The position numbers and the translations under genes were made by a program. A stretch of DNA of 6,039 bases from positions 1 to 6,039 of the IMG/VR virus record IMGVR_UViG_3300029123_000061; one strand, 5' to 3'. The DNA is from a virus. Positions 1-6,039 of this stretch are shown piece by piece (positions within the stretch are counted from its first letter, which is position 1; the number at the start of each line of letters is the position of its first letter). The notes below the pieces were generated by a model that was not told where the DNA came from, ran no database searches, and saw only the letters and a program-made list of their open reading frames with translations.

Positions 1-99
1 AAGAACATCGACGGACCCGGAACCATCAAGAACGGAAAGAATACGCTGACCGCGAGAAACGTAGGCAGGGGCGTCCTGCAATAACCAATCAAGAGGCAT
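1..99. repeat. 99-bp exact direct terminal repeat (1-99 is identical to 5941-6039). It is the assembly overlap of a circular genome, giving a true unit length of 5,940 bp.
   Basis: I compared the first 99 nt (aagaacatcgacggacccgg...aagaggcat) with 5941-6039 base by base and they are identical. The repeat contains the 5' end (first 33 codons) of the minus-strand 98-aa ORF. Confidence 0.95.
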
Positions 100-110
100 A
101 AATATAAATA

Positions 111-1901
111 TTAACGATTAGACAAACGAGTCGCAAATGTTTTGTTGACTAAATTCTTCTTTTGAACAGAATACGAAAGATTGATAAAGAAATTATCCTC
201 CGAATTAGACACAAACGGAGAATTTACCTGTCCAATATCAGTAAACAAAAGAGAATAGTATGAATTATAACTTGCAGACAAAACACGCTGCTGAACCCAA
301 TAAGAATAAAGGGGAACGTCAGACTTAGAGGCCTGAAAACGGGACAACTGACCAAGAACTTCGTCGTAAGAAGACCGAAACTCATTAAAGCAAGGTTCAT
401 ATGCCACGGCTTCCGAGGCAGAGGTAGTTCCAAAGCCAAACTGGAATCCCGGAATATCCTGGTATCCGATATCATTATAAATAGGATTAAAATAGTCGGC
501 ACCAGTATAGTGAAGGTAATCGGGATAAATACCAGCCCAGTAGTATACAGGTCGAATACTCAACATATCAATCAAGTAACCGGGCTCACGAAAATAGTAG
601 GACTGTCGACGACCAAGGCGGTCATTAAAAGCGATAGCGCCACCCTGCTGTCCAAGGGGACCAATCGACGAATCGCCACCGAAATTACTAAATCCAGCCT
701 GATTCATAATCACCTGAACATTAATGGTTTGCGAAGCGCTAAACAAAAGCTTAGGTCGATCGACGTGTTCAATCTTAGACGCAAAGAACGTCTCCAACCA
801 ATCGCTATAACGACTTCCTCCAGCACCAAGCAAATCCTTATATTCTTGAAGACGCGAAGCGATAGCAAGCTGGGGGATAGTTGCCACTCCAGTCATCGAA
901 ACTCCCTCAGAAGAGCCAACAGGGAGCAGTCTACTGTAACGATCGGGGTTCGAGGGCACAACAGCCATCGGATGAGCAACAAGAAAGGCTCCGAGAGTGG
1001 TGACAGTCGTAGCAGCAGGAATAGTAGAAAACTGACTATCGGGACCCGAGCTCGACAATACCGTGCTTCCAGGATAAATAGTAGAAACAGGATAACCGTC
1101 GCGAGAAGCCGTAATTATCGCACCAAGGTCAGACAAAGCTATCTGGGAAAAAAGATTTCCGCGATTATACGTATTATTCGAAGAGGTTACAGACGAAGGA
1201 TAAAACTGACTCTCAAAATATGCATCCAGGAATTCAAGATTACCAAACCTCTGACTAAAGAATGACGAATTCGACCCAAACTGAAGAACAGAATAAAGAG
1301 TACCAGTAGAATTGGGTATGAAGTACCAACTACCGGGCCAGGCGAAAGAGTAGAGACCCCACTGGGAATAACTGTAATAATTACGAACGATGTCCCAGTA
1401 AGCAAGATAAGAATCAGCATTACACCAACCTAAAGGATAGGCCAACTGAGCCGCCGTAAGATTACCCGACATCGGAACATTACTCGAAGTCGGGGTCGGT
1501 ATAGAAGCGGGAACAGCGCGTAACCAACGAAGCAAGGAGTTGGAATAAGGATAGTTATTTGTCGTGAATTCGTATGAACCAGTAGTTGAAGCGGCAATAA
1601 AATTCAAGCTCAAATCATTCATATCAAACTTACTGCTATTCGTCCTCATCTCGGGGTGGTATAACTGGAGCGGCACCCAAAAGCGGTGAAGTCGAATAGT
1701 GTAAGGATTGAACGTCGGAACAGCAAGAGGATTACTGCGAACGTCAATACCCTGCTCGATAGAAACACGATCTCGAGCATTAATGAAATCAATTCGCACC
1801 GGATACAAAATACCCGGTGTGCATGTAAAAGCCTTACTCTCAGGAACATCGTAGCGAGAGTAACCATTTACAACGTGTGAAATGAAAGGTTGTTTTCCCA
1901 T
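111..1901 (-). CDS. Microviridae major capsid protein (VP1 / F-protein family), 596 aa.
   Basis: ATG at 1901-1899 and TAA at 113-111. The N-terminal region (…AVPTFNPYTIRLHRFWVPLQLYHPE…) matches the conserved FFVPLRL-type block of gokushovirus-like VP1 as I recall it. Its size and its position directly downstream of Rep (3-nt gap) are typical of Microviridae. Third codon positions are strongly T-ending. Confidence 0.9.
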   Translation of the reverse strand: MGKQPFISHVVNGYSRYDVPESKAFTCTPGILYPVRIDFINARDRVSIEQGIDVRSNPLAVPTFNPYTIRLHRFWVPLQLYHPEMRTNSSKFDMNDLSLNFIAASTTGSYEFTTNNYPYSNSLLRWLRAVPASIPTPTSSNVPMSGNLTAAQLAYPLGWCNADSYLAYWDIVRNYYSYSQWGLYSFAWPGSWYFIPNSTGTLYSVLQFGSNSSFFSQRFGNLEFLDAYFESQFYPSSVTSSNNTYNRGNLFSQIALSDLGAIITASRDGYPVSTIYPGSTVLSSSGPDSQFSTIPAATTVTTLGAFLVAHPMAVVPSNPDRYSRLLPVGSSEGVSMTGVATIPQLAIASRLQEYKDLLGAGGSRYSDWLETFFASKIEHVDRPKLLFSASQTINVQVIMNQAGFSNFGGDSSIGPLGQQGGAIAFNDRLGRRQSYYFREPGYLIDMLSIRPVYYWAGIYPDYLHYTGADYFNPIYNDIGYQDIPGFQFGFGTTSASEAVAYEPCFNEFRSSYDEVLGQLSRFQASKSDVPLYSYWVQQRVLSASYNSYYSLLFTDIGQVNSPFVSNSEDNFFINLSYSVQKKNLVNKTFATRLSNR

Positions 1902-1904
1902 AAA

Positions 1905-2975
1905 TTAAGTAATTAGTTGAAGTTTATAATGATCTCTCCAGAACTGAAGAATGTCCAAATCGAGCCAAGTAGGGGGGGCGAAATCAGGCATCTTCCGAGA
2001 AGACGCAGAGAAACGCATTATTTGCTTTTGCTCCCACGTATACGATGCTCTACGGGATACGGAGGAATTGAGGCCGAACCGCTCAACACACAGAGAGACA
2101 ATACGCTTAACCAAAGAAGACTTGCTAAAACGTGCATAAGCATCAGCAGCGGTAATTGAGCGAACAACTTCGTCTTCCGGTTCGATATATTTAAGATAGT
2201 ATCGAGGAATCGAATAATTATAATTGATACGCTTCTCAAAATCGAAATAAGACCACGACGAAACGCGAGTAGAAGGACGAGGCATATAGCCAAGAAAATC
2301 ACCGACGCCAGCAGATACGAATTTTCGCGTATAACGGCGATGTTGGAGGAGGCAAGATAAAGGTGTAAGTTTTCCATCTACGGTAACATATTTATCCGAA
2401 ATTTCTTCGGGATTAAACTGAATTTGTTTAGTAACATACTTAACACAATAGCGAGCACGCTTGTGGGTAGCCTTTGCCAACCACACAAAACCAAGATCTC
2501 GAACGGCAGAACGAATAGTATTGTAAAGAACATTTGTGCCGAAGAGAAAACCATGAAAATGTAGTCGAGGTTCATTTCCTGTTTCAGGGTGAGTGCCAAA
2601 CTCTTGAAAAAAGGCATGTTTGAACGAATGACCGAGTTTATGTCGCAAGCGCTCATTGAAACGGCGGATAAAACAGGACGGGTCAAGCAAGGCTTCGTTG
2701 TAATACTTCGGATCAATCGTTATTGTAATAAAAATAGCCTGCTGGCCATCAGCCTTACAGCGAGCAAGTTCGCGCTCGAGCCGAACGAACCAATCATTAC
2801 GCTGGCGACGCAAGCAATCTTCGCACTTTCCGCACGGAACCATCAGCCACTGTCGAGCGATGTCCCAAGGTCGAAGAGCTAAGGCCGATTTGGCAACATC
2901 AGAACCATTTCGACAAGGATTCTTCTTGTCAAAATAACGACGATTCCGGATCCATATGGGAGATGAACAAGGCAT
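1905..2975 (-). CDS. Rolling-circle replication initiator (Microviridae VP4 / gene A-like HUH endonuclease), about 356 aa from ATG at 2975. The ORF track starts 7 codons earlier at TTG 2996.
   Basis: The translation contains RCR motif I (IFITITID), motif II HUH (HFHGFLFG) and motif III with catalytic Tyr (YCVKYVTK). The N-terminal PCGKCEDC zinc-ribbon-like block is typical of Microviridae Rep. The ATG at 2975 overlaps the stop of the upstream 66-aa ORF as TAATG. The track's first codon at 2996-2994 is TTG, with a TGA stop directly upstream at 2999-2997. Confidence 0.9.
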   Translation of the reverse strand: MPCSSPIWIRNRRYFDKKNPCRNGSDVAKSALALRPWDIARQWLMVPCGKCEDCLRRQRNDWFVRLERELARCKADGQQAIFITITIDPKYYNEALLDPSCFIRRFNERLRHKLGHSFKHAFFQEFGTHPETGNEPRLHFHGFLFGTNVLYNTIRSAVRDLGFVWLAKATHKRARYCVKYVTKQIQFNPEEISDKYVTVDGKLTPLSCLLQHRRYTRKFVSAGVGDFLGYMPRPSTRVSSWSYFDFEKRINYNYSIPRYYLKYIEPEDEVVRSITAADAYARFSKSSLVKRIVSLCVERFGLNSSVSRRASYTWEQKQIMRFSASSRKMPDFAPPTWLDLDILQFWRDHYKLQLIT

Positions 2976-3175
2976 TAGAAAATACTTCGAAGACAATCAA
3001 ATTTAATACCAGGATGATCAAGATGACAACGAACGAGATAATCATTCGCAGAAACTTCATCAGCGAACCAAGCAATAACGACTCGCTTTTTACCCCTGTA
3101 TGCGCCAATAGAATAGCGACAAGCGGCACCATTAACAATAGGGGAAAATCTCGGTCGAAAGTCAAAATAATCCAT
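2975..3175 (-). CDS. Hypothetical 66-aa protein with 3 Cys and 3 His, translationally coupled to Rep.
   Basis: ATG at 3175-3173. The TAA at 2977-2975 shares its last A with the Rep ATG (TAATG). T-ending codon bias matches the confirmed genes (GAT TAT TTT GAC TTT CGA CCG AGA TTT…). A GC-rich hairpin plus T-run lies immediately upstream. I cannot name a homologue from memory. Confidence 0.45.
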   Translation of the reverse strand: MDYFDFRPRFSPIVNGAACRYSIGAYRGKKRVVIAWFADEVSANDYLVRCHLDHPGIKFDCLRSIF

Positions 3176-3413
3176 AATTCAAAAAGATTGCATTGCGCTT
3201 CGAAAGACGGTACTTTCGAGCGCGAGAACTACTACGTTTCGCCGGCCGACAGCCTTAACGGCTGGGACGCTGCGCGTCTTCGGCCTCCATGGCTTCACTC
3301 CGTTTGGGATATACCGGCAAAGCCGGTGAATACAAAAGCCCACAGGAGAGGGGAGTATCTCCTGGGGCATAGTAAGTCAAAGAACTCTTCCACCGAGCGG
3401 GCGGGTCACTACT
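3176..3413. promoter_or_regulatory. GC-rich structured non-coding island. GC is about 68% at 3241-3300 against about 43% in the genes. It contains at least four stable hairpins, including a nested three-stem element, and is a candidate replication origin or complementary-strand primosome site and promoter region upstream of the ORF66-Rep-VP1 gene block.
   Basis: The first hairpin is 3195-3223: GCGC-t-TCGAAAG [acggta] CTTTCGA-GCGC. The second is 3244-3285: an outer stem GGCCGA/TCGGCC enclosing CAGCC[ttaac]GGCTG (3250-3264) and GACGC[tgc]GCGTC (3266-3278). The third is 3313-3327: ACCGGC[aaa]GCCGGT. The only ORF fully inside it (3179-3370, 63 aa) lacks the T-ending codon bias of real genes. Confidence 0.5.
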
Positions 3414-3737
3414 TTAGTTCCCTTTCCCTTCTTCTTCCGACGCGCTTTCATTGAGAGACAAATCAAAGTCAAACATAAGAACAAGTGTATTATCGAAAAA
3501 CTCGACCGCAAAATTCGGATACGCACTCAGGGCGCTTATAAGACTATGGACAGAACGATGTTCGATATAGGGAGAATCGGCAATACTGGAATGTTCTACG
3601 TAGGTAGAAACGGGAGTATGCTCAAGGGCATCAATAGAAAATGACGAAAACTGTCCATTTTCAATGTAACCTACCTGAACAAGGTCAATCTTAAAGGCAG
3701 GATTAATACGACGGATAACAACGTGAATCTGTGTCAT
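3414..3737 (-). CDS. Hypothetical 107-aa protein with an acidic C-terminus (…FDFDLSLNESASEEEGKGN). It sits between VP2 and Rep, where gokushoviruses carry VP3, so it may be an internal scaffolding protein analogue.
   Basis: ATG at 3737-3735. Strong T-ending codon bias. It is tightly packed 15 nt after the stop of the upstream ORF. No recognisable motif. Confidence 0.6.
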   Translation of the reverse strand: MTQIHVVIRRINPAFKIDLVQVGYIENGQFSSFSIDALEHTPVSTYVEHSSIADSPYIEHRSVHSLISALSAYPNFAVEFFDNTLVLMFDFDLSLNESASEEEGKGN

Positions 3738-3752
3738 AATTAAAAGAATTAA

Positions 3753-4070
3753 CTAAAAAAGCGAAAAAAAGGATTTACAAAAATCTTCCCAACGATTAGA
3801 AGCGTCGACCCAGAATTCACGGCCTTCGGGGGTTCTATCGAAAGCAAATGAGCCGGCAAGAAAAAAAGAATAATTCATAAAGCCATACTTTGCATAACGG
3901 CGCAGACGGTCTCGAATGTCGTCGCGAACAGATGTGGTAACTCGTCCAGATTCTTCGAGATTCTTCGCGTATTTACGATAAAGGCGATTTCGAACAAGCC
4001 ACTCAACGAAAAGATACTCTAAAGCATCAACTCGTAAATCTAACTGATTAAAAGATTTCTGCGTTTTCAT
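3753..4070 (-). CDS. Hypothetical 105-aa protein of unknown function, mildly basic and rich in aromatic residues.
   Basis: ATG at 4070-4068 and TAG at 3755-3753. T-ending codon bias. It is preceded by an 80-nt AT-rich intergenic spacer (4071-4150) after the VP2 stop. I recall no family match. Confidence 0.6.
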   Translation of the reverse strand: MKTQKSFNQLDLRVDALEYLFVEWLVRNRLYRKYAKNLEESGRVTTSVRDDIRDRLRRYAKYGFMNYSFFLAGSFAFDRTPEGREFWVDASNRWEDFCKSFFSLF

Positions 4071-4150
4071 GATAATGTGGTTATTGGTTTACGATGCAAA
4101 TATCCGAAAAAAATAGTAAATGACAAAATTCAAAAGGTCGAAAAAAGTAT

Positions 4151-5416
4151 TCAATTTCTCCCAAACATACTACGACGTGTGTATGTGCCACCAATCCGGT
4201 CACCGGAAGAGCCATAAAATTCCTTCATCTCCTCATAACCTTCAGGACCAGCAGGACCTGCAGCCTTGCGGCCAACGTATGAGGCGCCAGCGATGCCTGC
4301 GGCAGTGGCAAAGGAGCGAATGACATCATGTGCGAGACGAAGTCGAGAATTGCGCAAATCCCAACGGATGTTTCCTGTTTCGAGTTGAGCAGTTTCAGCA
4401 GCAGCGGACTTCAAAATAGCCGTAGTTTCAGCCACTTTCATCATCTTCGTCTCAACAACTTCACCTTTATCGTTACGAATCTGAACAGGAACTTCTTTCT
4501 CCCAATTCAGCTCGTACCATTTCTGCAAATCCTTAAGTTCCTGGGCATTAAGCTTTATACGAGATTCAGATTCAGCAGCGGCAGAAACGTTTGCAATAGC
4601 GGAAGACCAGGCAACAGCAAGGGCTGCTCCAGCTTGAGGTTCAAACCAATCATTCGTCATACGAATATTTTGGTATTTCTCCTCCAAAATGCCAGCCATA
4701 GCCATAATAGAAGACATTTTATAACCTTGCGTAATATTAGCCAAATAAGCGTCAATTGCAACAATTTGAGCCTGCGCTTCACGAAGGTTGGCGAGCTCAC
4801 GAGCATCTTTAACATTATGCTGCGCAATCTGCAATTCAAGATTATCCATCTGTTCTCGCCACTCTTGCGTATGAGTATTACCACGAAGGTTATCAGCTTC
4901 CGCCTCATCTCGGTTAGCAGCAGCAGTATTGCGGTCAACCGTAGACTGCGCAACCATATTTTGTGCAATAGCAGTAGGATCACCAGGAGCGAAAGCAGCA
5001 GGAGAAACGGGAGCGCCGCCTGAAGGACCTGAAGCAGAAGGCATACCTGCAGAACCACCGGACATAGTAGCATTCACGCCAACACCAGAAGAGCCTAAAA
5101 CAGCAGCAGGTGTTACACCAGCCTTCAAATACCGGCTAAAAACTTTTGAGGGGTCATTATACGAATTTTCATAATCAAACTGCCTTTGCCAATTAGTATA
5201 AGAAAGTTCAGACTGTCTTTGCATCTGCTCTAAAGCGTATTTCTGCTGAAGAGCCATTTGTTTTTGCTGATATCTCCACTGCCGGCGGGCGTTCATGCCA
5301 CCAAAAAGTTGGCCGAGGGCGCCGGAAATCAAACCGGTAGCACCGGTAGAGGCGGCCGACTGGCCAAGAGCCTGGCCGAAAGACGTAGCAGCGGCAGCAG
5401 CAACGGGAGCGGGCAT
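4151..5416 (-). CDS. Microviridae minor capsid / DNA pilot protein (VP2, H-protein-like), 421 aa.
   Basis: ATG at 5416-5414 and TGA at 4153-4151. The N-terminus is Gly/Ala-rich (AAAAATSFGQALGQSAASTGATGLISGALGQLFGG). It is followed by Gln/Met-rich and long coiled-coil-like A/Q/E/L-rich segments and a G/S/A low-complexity linker. Its size and its position between VP1 and Rep are typical of VP2. Confidence 0.75.
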   Translation of the reverse strand: MPAPVAAAAATSFGQALGQSAASTGATGLISGALGQLFGGMNARRQWRYQQKQMALQQKYALEQMQRQSELSYTNWQRQFDYENSYNDPSKVFSRYLKAGVTPAAVLGSSGVGVNATMSGGSAGMPSASGPSGGAPVSPAAFAPGDPTAIAQNMVAQSTVDRNTAAANRDEAEADNLRGNTHTQEWREQMDNLELQIAQHNVKDARELANLREAQAQIVAIDAYLANITQGYKMSSIMAMAGILEEKYQNIRMTNDWFEPQAGAALAVAWSSAIANVSAAAESESRIKLNAQELKDLQKWYELNWEKEVPVQIRNDKGEVVETKMMKVAETTAILKSAAAETAQLETGNIRWDLRNSRLRLAHDVIRSFATAAGIAGASYVGRKAAGPAGPEGYEEMKEFYGSSGDRIGGTYTRRSMFGRN

Positions 5417-5417
5417 A

Positions 5418-5720
5418 CTACAGGTGTGTTAAATTGTTAGAACGAATGATATAATCAACACGAACAGTGTCAATGTGAACGCCACTACGCTGCATCCTGG
5501 CTTGAGCCGAACAAGAAGCAAGAAAAAAGGCGGCCAATGCGGCAATAATAGACGAAATGAGTGTCCAAAAGGCTTTAGACCTGTAAAAGGGTTGCTTGAT
5601 CTCAGACATAAGAATAAAATTTAAAGAACGATAGAAAAATGCGCGGCCTCTCCTGCAGTCGTTACCAATAACCTTCAGCAATTCACGAACTCTTGCAAAA
5701 GGGGTCCGCGCACGTAACAT
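5418..5720 (-). CDS. Small basic membrane or lipoprotein-like protein. The full ORF is 100 aa. An internal ATG at 5609 would give a 63-aa prolipoprotein with a signal peptide and LASC lipobox. It is a candidate lysis or superinfection-exclusion protein.
   Basis: Residues 38-100 are MSEIKQPFYRSKAF-WTLISSIIAALAAFFLA-S-C-SAQ…: a positively charged n-region, a 17-residue hydrophobic core, and L-A-S-C matching the lipobox [LVI][ASTVI][GAS]C. The mature part would be about 30 aa. The N-terminal 37 aa are very Arg-rich (net about +7). The TAG stop at 5420-5418 is followed 1 nt later by the VP2 ATG. It does not overlap a larger gene, so its hydrophobicity is not a frame artefact. Confidence 0.5.
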   Translation of the reverse strand: MLRARTPFARVRELLKVIGNDCRRGRAFFYRSLNFILMSEIKQPFYRSKAFWTLISSIIAALAAFFLASCSAQARMQRSGVHIDTVRVDYIIRSNNLTHL

Positions 5721-5742
5721 ATATCTTCAAGTAAAGGATATA

Positions 5743-6039
5743 CTATTTTTCTTCAGAATTAGTAGACTTCGAAGCAGACTTCGACCTATCTATTTCAGAA
5801 TCAATAAGTTCCTGTCCAACCTCGAGTCCATCAAACTTATCCATACGAGAGAACGAGTTAGGGTCGAAATCGATTTCAGGATTAAACTTTTCGCCCTTAT
5901 CAAAATCAGAGGGTTCGGCAATCACGTCCGGACGACCAGGAAGAACATCGACGGACCCGGAACCATCAAGAACGGAAAGAATACGCTGACCGCGAGAAAC
6001 GTAGGCAGGGGCGTCCTGCAATAACCAATCAAGAGGCAT
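5743..6039 (-). CDS. Hypothetical acidic 98-aa protein (13 Asp and 8 Glu against 11 Lys/Arg). It spans the linearisation point and could be a scaffolding-like or accessory protein.
   Basis: The ATG at 6039-6037 corresponds to 99-97 and lies 11 nt downstream of the capsid TAA in circular context. TAG at 5745-5743. Strong T-ending codon bias. Confidence 0.55.
   Translation of the reverse strand: MPLDWLLQDAPAYVSRGQRILSVLDGSGSVDVLPGRPDVIAEPSDFDKGEKFNPEIDFDPNSFSRMDKFDGLEVGQELIDSEIDRSKSASKSTNSEEK
5941..6039. repeat. Second copy of the 99-bp terminal redundancy (circularisation overlap).
   Basis: Identical to 1-99. The ORF at 5743-6039 starts with ATG at 6039-6037, which is the same ATG as 99-97. 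In circular context the in-frame upstream stop is at 118-120. Confidence 0.95.

Follow-up and report, generated by a model that had tools for sequence, protein, structure and literature searches.

Introduction

Small phage lipoproteins are already a known kind of protein, and several described systems lie close to the one treated here, a candidate lipoprotein gene between the capsid (VP1) and pilot protein (VP2) genes of a microvirus. Protein E of phiX174 is overprinted in gene D, has no lipobox, stays uncleaved and carries an essential proline in its helix; Ltp of Streptococcus phage TP-J34, also a lipoprotein, binds the tape-measure protein and thereby blocks DNA injection; and in bacteriocin release proteins (BRPs) a stable signal peptide adds to lethality. 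Colicin lysis proteins are made as a precursor of 47 amino acids (aa) that yields a 28-aa mature lipopeptide, and they activate outer-membrane phospholipase A (PMC2896534). The exclusion lipoproteins of tailed phages adjoin receptor-recognition genes and act from the periplasm (PMC9586334). Among microviruses, the Bacteroides virus phiHBP1 has host-range mutations in its capsid and pilot proteins (PMC13064476), and in Alpavirinae a VP3-like scaffold role has been suggested for an open reading frame (ORF) that follows VP1 (PMC3394797). Outside the phiX group, lysis and superinfection exclusion are poorly understood in microviruses, though these viruses are abundant in animal guts. Our locus lies in IMG/VR virus record IMGVR_UViG_3300029123_000061, of which the whole stretch analysed, positions 1 to 6,039 (6,039 nucleotides (nt); hereafter the window), is a complete microvirus genome with every gene on the minus strand.

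Two small minus-strand ORFs, ORF98 and ORF100, are located between VP1 and VP2, as a preliminary description of the window had stated. That description, which set the genome against the canonical gokushovirus gene order, took them for a two-gene accessory cassette, with a second gene at 5418-5720 that encodes a lipoprotein or membrane protein for lysis or exclusion. Our comparison redraws this arrangement: ORF100 holds a clean 63-codon candidate gene, universal in one Bacteroidota-associated subclade, behind a conserved structured nucleic-acid element. By-products of the work, namely the structured element at the scaffold-pilot junction and an ORF overprinted in Rep (ORF119), are possibly as important as the lipoprotein.

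Results

A 63-codon gene within ORF100

We gathered 83 related loci from viral contigs and GenBank, and drew a conservation profile from an alignment of 74 genomes. The features of the locus are:

5418 to 5720, minus strand: ORF100 as first drawn, which contains the true lipoprotein gene at 5609..5418
5418 to 5609, minus strand: lipoprotein gene, 63 aa (MSEIKQPFYRSKAFWTLISSIIAALAAFFLAS followed by CSAQARMQRSGVHIDTVRVDYIIRSNNLTHL), with its TAG stop at 5418-5420
5514 to 5609, minus strand: signal peptide, residues 1-32, with n-region K5, R10 and K12, h-region A13-F29, and lipobox L30-A31-S32 before Cys33
5421 to 5513, minus strand: mature lipopeptide Cys33-Leu63, 31 aa, type A (R-x-G-V-H-I-D-T-V-R-V-D-Y-I-I-R-S)
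5610 to 5720, minus strand: "N-terminal extension" of the 100-aa ORF, non-coding and largely within the structured element
5621 to 5757, minus strand: structured nucleic-acid element of about 135 nt, marked by conservation and covariation-supported helices

Translation from an ATG inside the 100-aa ORF, at 5609, gives MSEIKQPFYRSKAFWTLISSIIAALAAFFLAS-C-SAQARMQRSGVHIDTVRVDYIIRSNNLTHL. This ATG is invariant in the 74-genome alignment and third-position variation sets in there: throughout 5609-5421, as in ORF98 (6039-5746), each codon has two conserved positions and one variable position. Single amino acids are encoded by many synonymous codons (six for L25; four each for A13, T16, S20 and A24), and the 63-aa core with its cysteine is intact in 84 of 84 loci. 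By this codon-level comparison, the lipoprotein gene is real and under strong purifying selection, and we hold with high confidence that it is a 63-aa prolipoprotein gene running from 5609 to 5418 on the minus strand, between the structured element and VP2. At its 3' end a TAG-T-ATG junction (5414..5420, minus strand) places the stop 1 nt ahead of the VP2 start; the hexamer AGTATG is conserved at ~100%, and the junction suggests that the lipoprotein and VP2 may be translationally coupled.

The preliminary description was thus right about the ORF and its lipobox but placed the 5' boundary too far upstream. The longer product that it also considered, a 100-aa protein begun at the ATG at 5720, in which a single transmembrane helix comes after an Arg-rich N-terminus, is exceedingly unlikely. 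Its frame is open in the window and reaches the upstream ATG in 33 of the 83 evaluable relatives, and 100 aa is the usual length in the output of gene callers. However, 5610-5720 lacks codon periodicity, nucleotide conservation across the extension is near-complete (97-100%), and its apparent amino-acid changes are compensatory base-pair changes, so that the Arg-rich N-terminus amounts to a translated structured nucleic-acid element. In 50 of 83 relatives a stop, a frameshift or a ~96-nt insertion comes between the extension and the 63-aa part: a stop lies at most 6 codons upstream of the conserved ATG in 35, the upstream ATG is absent in 8, and the remaining 7 have other arrangements, including the ~96-nt insertion at window 5621/5622. 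In Dulem virus 225 the extension forms a separate, out-of-register ORF. We therefore discarded the 100-aa start variant on the combined evidence of absent periodicity, compensatory changes and a mostly broken frame.

These boundaries bear on public annotation. Some 400 public protein clusters are listed as 100 aa and are overlong at the 5' end, and the gene call is wholly missing from several GenBank genomes. Lipoprotein genes of type B or A are unannotated in MG945170 (L105, 4511-4708), MG945509 (L106, 3402-3599) and MK765557 (L100, 1053-1244), and in other public records the VP2 or lipoprotein call runs 5' into the structured element.

Signal peptide, lipobox and mature peptide

The precursor carries the lipoprotein signal that had been described for the second gene. 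Behind the n-region, whose charged residues are as first reported, the 17-residue hydrophobic core AFWTLISSIIAALAAFF (A13-F29) contains no charged residue after K5, R10 and K12, and leads into the lipobox L-A-S-C. With Cys33 as its cysteine, the sequence agrees with the PROSITE PS51257-type rule ([LVI][ASTVI][GAS]-C, Cys 15-35 from the start); in the 100-aa form the same cysteine is residue 70 and falls outside it. The cysteine kept in every locus is also present in 29 of 29 distant representatives, 24-36 residues from the Met across the family, and is preceded at -1 by S (21), G (5) or A (3). Third-position variation under amino-acid constraint in the 74 genomes, together with the retention of this cysteine throughout, indicates that the lipobox is real and far beyond chance as judged from these alignments. 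Cleavage there would leave a mature lipopeptide of 31 aa starting with Cys33, in line with the roughly 30 aa first estimated. One entry of the nr database, DAU60727.1, is already titled "MAG TPA: lipoprotein [Microviridae sp.]".

Conservation is distributed unevenly along the protein. K12, F14, W15, F29, C33, G43 and D47 are invariant among the 29 representatives, with H45 nearly so, and mean pairwise identity rises from 0.38 in the n-region to 0.70 over K12-C33 and falls back to 0.39 in the mature part. In the AlphaFold2 prediction residues 12-33 form a helix (pLDDT >90), and residues 35-42 pair with 50-57 in a low-confidence beta-hairpin (pLDDT ~62). The mature 31-aa peptide has no Pro, and its only Cys is the putatively lipidated one. 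In Bacteroidota, two acidic residues at +2..+6 act as a surface-export signal (PMC5080379). No representative (0/29) carries two such residues ((D/E)2) at these positions, and the lipopeptide is for this reason predicted to face the periplasm.

Family, long forms and two mature peptides

A word-indexed search returned 414 lipoprotein clusters at 90% identity, most of them called as 100 aa. When 50%-identity representatives were searched exhaustively with HMMER, 52 proteins matched, and almost all of these aligned only to query residues 38-100. Apart from weak generic lipoprotein-signal matches, Pfam, PHROGs, NCBIfam and PDB sequence profiles gave nothing for the lipoprotein, and a BFVD fold search recovered its own family only.

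The slot between the structured element and VP2 holds a type A lipoprotein, a type B lipoprotein, or nothing. The two mature peptides (type A, GVHIDTVRVDYIIRS; type B, RHYVVQSASSIKSGDTTRTTITYEQ) are unrelated, about 30 aa long and usually found behind the same signal peptide; Dulem virus 210 has the type B peptide behind a different one. Type A or B was present in 25 of 25 sampled GenBank records with at least 59% VP1 identity, and the slot is empty in a sister clade (L108, L109) with VP1 ~42% identical. The closest capsid relative (76% VP1 identity) carries type B, unlike the type A of the window, which argues that the alleles recombine freely.

About half of the representatives are ORFs of ~190 aa whose frame runs on over another gene and ends in the basic motif RRGGRRGKGRPKGTKxIPLGGSHL. 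Synonymous permutation of the overlapping gene left the long frame open in 0.08-0.69 of trials, mostly 0.3-0.6. Because such permutation often keeps the frame open, the tail looks like passive read-on, and we rejected the ~190-aa ORF as a true fusion protein; the conserved unit is the first ~60 aa only.

ORF98 is a core gene

The acidic ORF98 shows clear codon periodicity in the genome alignment, and 1509 homologous clusters at 90% identity were found for it, against 414 for the lipoprotein. All relatives have it, even where the lipoprotein is missing, with a shared motif D(K/R)FDGLE(V/L)G. This distribution marks ORF98 as a core gene rather than an accessory one, and a conserved structured element separates it from the lipoprotein gene; the notion of a two-gene accessory cassette is therefore abandoned. 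ORF98 has no transmembrane segment and no match in Pfam or PHROG, hence none to the Chlamydia-phage scaffold or PHROG scaffold families. Its position after VP1 and its acidic composition agree with those of a VP3-like scaffold, which we infer it may be by analogy.

A conserved structured element upstream of the lipoprotein gene

From 5757 to 5621 the 74 genomes are 93-100% conserved without 3-nt periodicity, and the short interval 5620-5610 that follows is variable. An outer helix, P1, pairs AGAAAAAT (5752-5745, the terminal A-run of ORF98) with the T-run ATTTTTCT (5640-5633), and carries two compensatory changes, in relatives L093-L095. Next comes an invariant, apparently unpaired stretch, CTTTACTTGAnGATATATGnTACGT. 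A second helix, P2, pairs GCGCGG (5711-5706) with CCGCGC (5646-5641) and closes a long GC-closed hairpin with inner helices. Compensatory change is well illustrated by base 2 of "codon 9" and base 3 of "codon 14", where a C-G pair is replaced by G-C, G-U, A-U, U-A and U-G. By BLAST the element was detected in 61 phage records, at identities as low as 70%, both with and without a lipoprotein gene following it.

We aligned 35 diverse copies of the element, for which RNAalifold gave 27 pairs. Paired cells made up 95.4%, compared with 36-52% in slid controls, a figure inflated by drawing the structure from the same alignment. The double-change counts are the stronger evidence: 20 pairs were changed on both sides (3-8 in slid controls). 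The covariation score was 0.29 (≤0.075 in slid controls), and none of 500 shuffles reached any observed value. Neither Rfam (E up to 1) nor ARAGORN found anything in the window or in insertion-bearing relatives. Scans for promoter and terminator consensus sequences gave counts not above those of shuffled sequence; the long hairpin was missed by these scans.

With its GC stem followed by a U-tract and a matching upstream A-tract, the element looks like an intrinsic terminator, and the invariant single-stranded motif suggests an additional sequence-specific role. The fold may act either in mRNA or in packaged single-stranded DNA (ssDNA). The motif shares ACTTGA...ATAT with the phiX174 viral-strand origin, CAACTTG^ATATTAAT. 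This likeness comprises a 6-mer and an AT-rich run only and is a weak lead, since one shared position is variable (4 of 35 copies differ) and the genome contains the motif twice.

Eighteen relatives carry a GC-rich insertion of ~96 nt between the element and the lipoprotein ATG (about 2828-2920 in L004; also in L005-L007, L011-L015, L017, L019, L022, L025, L027, L032, L037, L081 and L082). It holds a hairpin, GCGGTTCGGAGAACCGC, with compensatory variants GCGCTTCGGAGAAGCGC and GCGCTCCGGAGGAGCGC, and has no Rfam match.

Genome context, host and ORF119

The other features of the window are:

5743 to 6039, minus strand: ORF98, acidic, 98 aa, directly after VP1
4151 to 5416, minus strand: VP2 pilot protein, with a PHROG pilot protein match
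between VP2 and Rep, minus strand: ORF105, ORF107, a 24-aa basic peptide and ORF66, in that order
from the Rep start to 1905, minus strand: Rep/VP4, with a match to Pfam REP_ORF2-G2P
2018 to 2377, minus strand: ORF119, overprinted in the +1 frame of Rep, with two hydrophobic helices and a basic C-tail
111 to 1901, minus strand: VP1 capsid, with a match to Pfam Phage_F

The ends of the window carry an exact 99-nt duplicate (1..99 = 5941..6039), which is an assembly overlap of a circular genome whose true length is 5940 nt; on this circle ORF98 starts 11 nt past the VP1 stop. Shine-Dalgarno sequences are absent from all genes of the window, and the upstream regions are AT-rich throughout. Screening 185,579 species genomes for a host homologue of the lipoprotein gave a single match, a microvirus prophage in Alistipes montrealensis (L097, 5101-10793 of NZ_JAGYXY010000001.1) that adjoins a host HIT-family gene. 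In several relatives (noted in L097, L084, L088, L089 and L096) a gene of the Xre-type helix-turn-helix (HTH) class directly precedes the lipoprotein gene, and one of them, L089, is a complete genome of 5868 nt including the HTH gene. The prophage and the HTH gene suggest that some relatives are temperate. Given the Alistipes prophage relative and the missing Shine-Dalgarno sequences, the host of the window virus is probably a member of the Bacteroidota. The same two observations, with the order Rep-VP1-acidic ORF-VP2, point to an Alpavirinae-like Bacteroidota microvirus and contradict the canonical gokushovirus on which the preliminary description was premised.

All 83 complete relatives keep ORF119 open at 116-119 aa, even at 37% identity, and protein databases hardly contain it. 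When Rep was permuted synonymously, the frame survived in only 0.02-0.1 of trials for 13 of 14 lineages, so that chance is an unlikely cause of its openness. ORF119 is a candidate E-like or holin-like lysis gene. As the preliminary description had noted for lytic enzymes, no endolysin, amidase or M15 domain, and no holin family, was matched in any ORF scanned. Its proposal that the lipoprotein is the best lysis candidate is weakened by ORF119, a second membrane protein that is more widely conserved. We also followed M15 peptidase candidates in lipoprotein-bearing relatives, where the mid-sized ORFs proved to be HTH regulators or host genes.

Several smaller observations concern the interval between VP2 and Rep. 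ORF66 (window 2975-3175, minus strand) is kept in relatives L105 and L106, and its stop overlaps the Rep ATG as TAATG; on account of this overlap, Rep most likely starts at the ATG at 2975 (MPCSSPIWIRNRRY), not at the TTG at 2996 given by the ORF finder. The 24-aa basic peptide MKARRKKKGKGTKVVTRPLGGRVL (window 3377-3451, minus strand) resembles the DNA-binding J proteins of the phiX group in size and charge, and in relatives its motif is also found at the end of the ~190-aa long ORFs, there without a separate ATG. In the GC-richer gap at 3176-3376, 37 nt (3194-3230, minus strand) are 100% identical to 2831-2867 of L087, an otherwise distant genome; they form the hairpin GCGCTCGAAAG-TACCGT-CTTTCGAAGCGC, which may be an attachment site or a complementary-strand origin.

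Discussion

We tentatively favour, at somewhat less than an even chance, a role for the lipoprotein in superinfection exclusion or in preventing readsorption, by analogy with the exclusion lipoproteins of tailed phages, and prefer it to a role in lysis. The 63-aa precursor would be exported by Sec, lipidated at Cys33 by Lgt and then cleaved by signal peptidase II, giving a 31-aa lipopeptide folded as a small beta-hairpin. From the periplasm the lipopeptide could bind an outer-membrane receptor or the incoming pilot-protein conduit; sister virions would be blocked from entering infected or lysogenic cells, and fewer progeny would be lost on cell debris. We lean towards exclusion because ORF119 could cover lysis, because the predicted location of the lipopeptide is periplasm-facing, because the gene stands immediately upstream of VP2 with a conserved TAG-T-ATG junction, because alternative mature peptides occur at one locus, and because the prophage and Xre-type HTH context recalls an immunity region. 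Several observations weigh against it. The lipoprotein resembles neither Llp and Cor nor any other named family in Pfam, PHROG, NCBIfam, PDB or BFVD, by sequence or by fold, and its mature peptide is half the length of Llp (61 aa) and lacks the internal disulfide of Llp. Type A peptides remain alike among viruses whose capsids and gene orders differ greatly, a pattern more easily reconciled with a conserved target than with a variable receptor. Conservation within the protein peaks in the signal helix (0.70 vs 0.39), which exclusion does not explain, and in long-form genomes the gene does not adjoin VP2. Moreover, the linkage to VP2 and the swapping of alleles could reflect recombination hot spots rather than function.

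A lysis or release effector is somewhat unlikely but comes next: here the lipopeptide, perhaps with the released signal peptide, would damage the envelope late in infection, either in the manner of colicin lysis proteins or as a new single-gene lysis protein that blocks a step of envelope biogenesis. Endolysin, amidase and M15 domains are all missing from the scanned ORFs, whereas phiHBP1 encodes an M15A peptidase (PMC13064476), and the protein is close in size to colicin lysis proteins (PMC2896534). All 25 sampled members of the subclade retain the gene in genomes of just 6 kb, and it lies behind a terminator-like hairpin with a U-tract, which would keep expression low, as for a toxic protein. 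The unusual conservation of the signal helix also speaks for lysis, though neither lysis nor exclusion fully explains it. However, Pfam Lysis_col and Rz1 were unmatched at E up to 10, the more broadly conserved ORF119 in Rep offers an alternative lysis gene, a locus that holds either of two unrelated mature peptides implies two targets, the sister clade (L108, L109) manages without such a gene, and the gene is carried in a stable prophage. In a speculative and improbable extension of this idea, the gene would be a new single-gene lysis or "protein antibiotic" factor of non-phiX microviruses, with the invariant signal helix (K-x-F-W-T-L...A-L...F...C) as its active part; the helix would, for instance, block the processing or sorting of lipoproteins, or a different membrane step in Bacteroidota envelope biogenesis, and the exchangeable 30-aa beta-hairpin would tune or target it.

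Two further explanations seem less probable than lysis. The lipoprotein could have another role in the envelope or in morphogenesis, as a partner in handling VP2, as a membrane tether for replication or assembly, or as a modulator of the host envelope. Its tight, conserved coupling to VP2 speaks for this, as does a helix conserved across viruses that also share a conserved N-terminal VP2 block; but an exported 31-aa lipopeptide would sit across the membrane from any assembly in the cytoplasm, and long-form genomes part the gene from VP2, so that we rate such a role as quite unlikely. Very unlikely, in our estimate, is an uncleaved single-pass membrane protein with the helix as effector, like the transmembrane domain of phiX174 E that binds MraY. 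Such a protein would account for the high identity of the helix (0.70, against 0.39 and 0.38 elsewhere) and for the invariant K12, F14, W15 and F29, which are unusual in a signal peptide. Yet an invariant Cys at the end of the helix, with S, G or A at -1 in 29 of 29 representatives, is the signal peptidase II rule; the Cys keeps its distance of 24-36 residues from the Met family-wide; and, unlike E, the lipoprotein has a Pro-free helix and is not encoded within another gene.

Comparison with known systems

Rz1-type o-spanins and the T1 u-spanin gp11 are, like the present protein, small phage lipoproteins from a late or structural transcription unit. The neighbours here are ORF98 and VP2, with no partner i-spanin and no holin-endolysin cassette, and the mature part has no Pro, no extra Cys and no C-terminal transmembrane domain. 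An Rz1-like spanin, one of the options first raised for this gene, is disfavoured by the missing i-spanin partner, by a mature peptide that is neither Pro-rich nor supplied with an extra Cys, and by the absence of an Rz1 profile match. Colicin lysis proteins and BRPs (Pfam Lysis_col, PF02402) share similar length and architecture and a small replicon (PMC2896534). They differ in that the window gene is not in an SOS-controlled colicin operon and belongs to a virus of a probable Bacteroidota host; PF02402 matched neither the window protein (E up to 0.1) nor any of 30 family members (E up to 10). With phiX174 E the lipoprotein shares small size, membrane targeting, a conserved helix and a microvirus without endolysin, but it has a lipobox, a helix without Pro and no gene overlap, and the layout of E is matched better by ORF119 inside Rep.

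Two exclusion systems remain. Ltp is a lipoprotein directed against an incoming DNA-conduit protein, which is one option proposed here with VP2 as the conduit; it is much larger, belongs to a Gram-positive system and is unrelated in sequence. T5 Llp and Cor (in T5, T1 and phi80-like phages) are likewise small phage lipoproteins beside a host-recognition or entry gene, predicted here as there to face the periplasm, near-universal in their phage group and present in alternative versions at one locus (PMC9586334). They differ in having no sequence or fold match to our protein, which has a mature part of 31 aa (61 aa in Llp), no second Cys for an Llp-type disulfide, a conserved signal helix and an origin in a Bacteroidota ssDNA microvirus. 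In the literature searched we found no paper on microvirus lipoproteins. What sets the window lipoprotein apart within a familiar kind of protein is its lack of homology to characterised families, its ssDNA microvirus origin, its shortness, its conserved signal helix and its exchangeable mature peptide.

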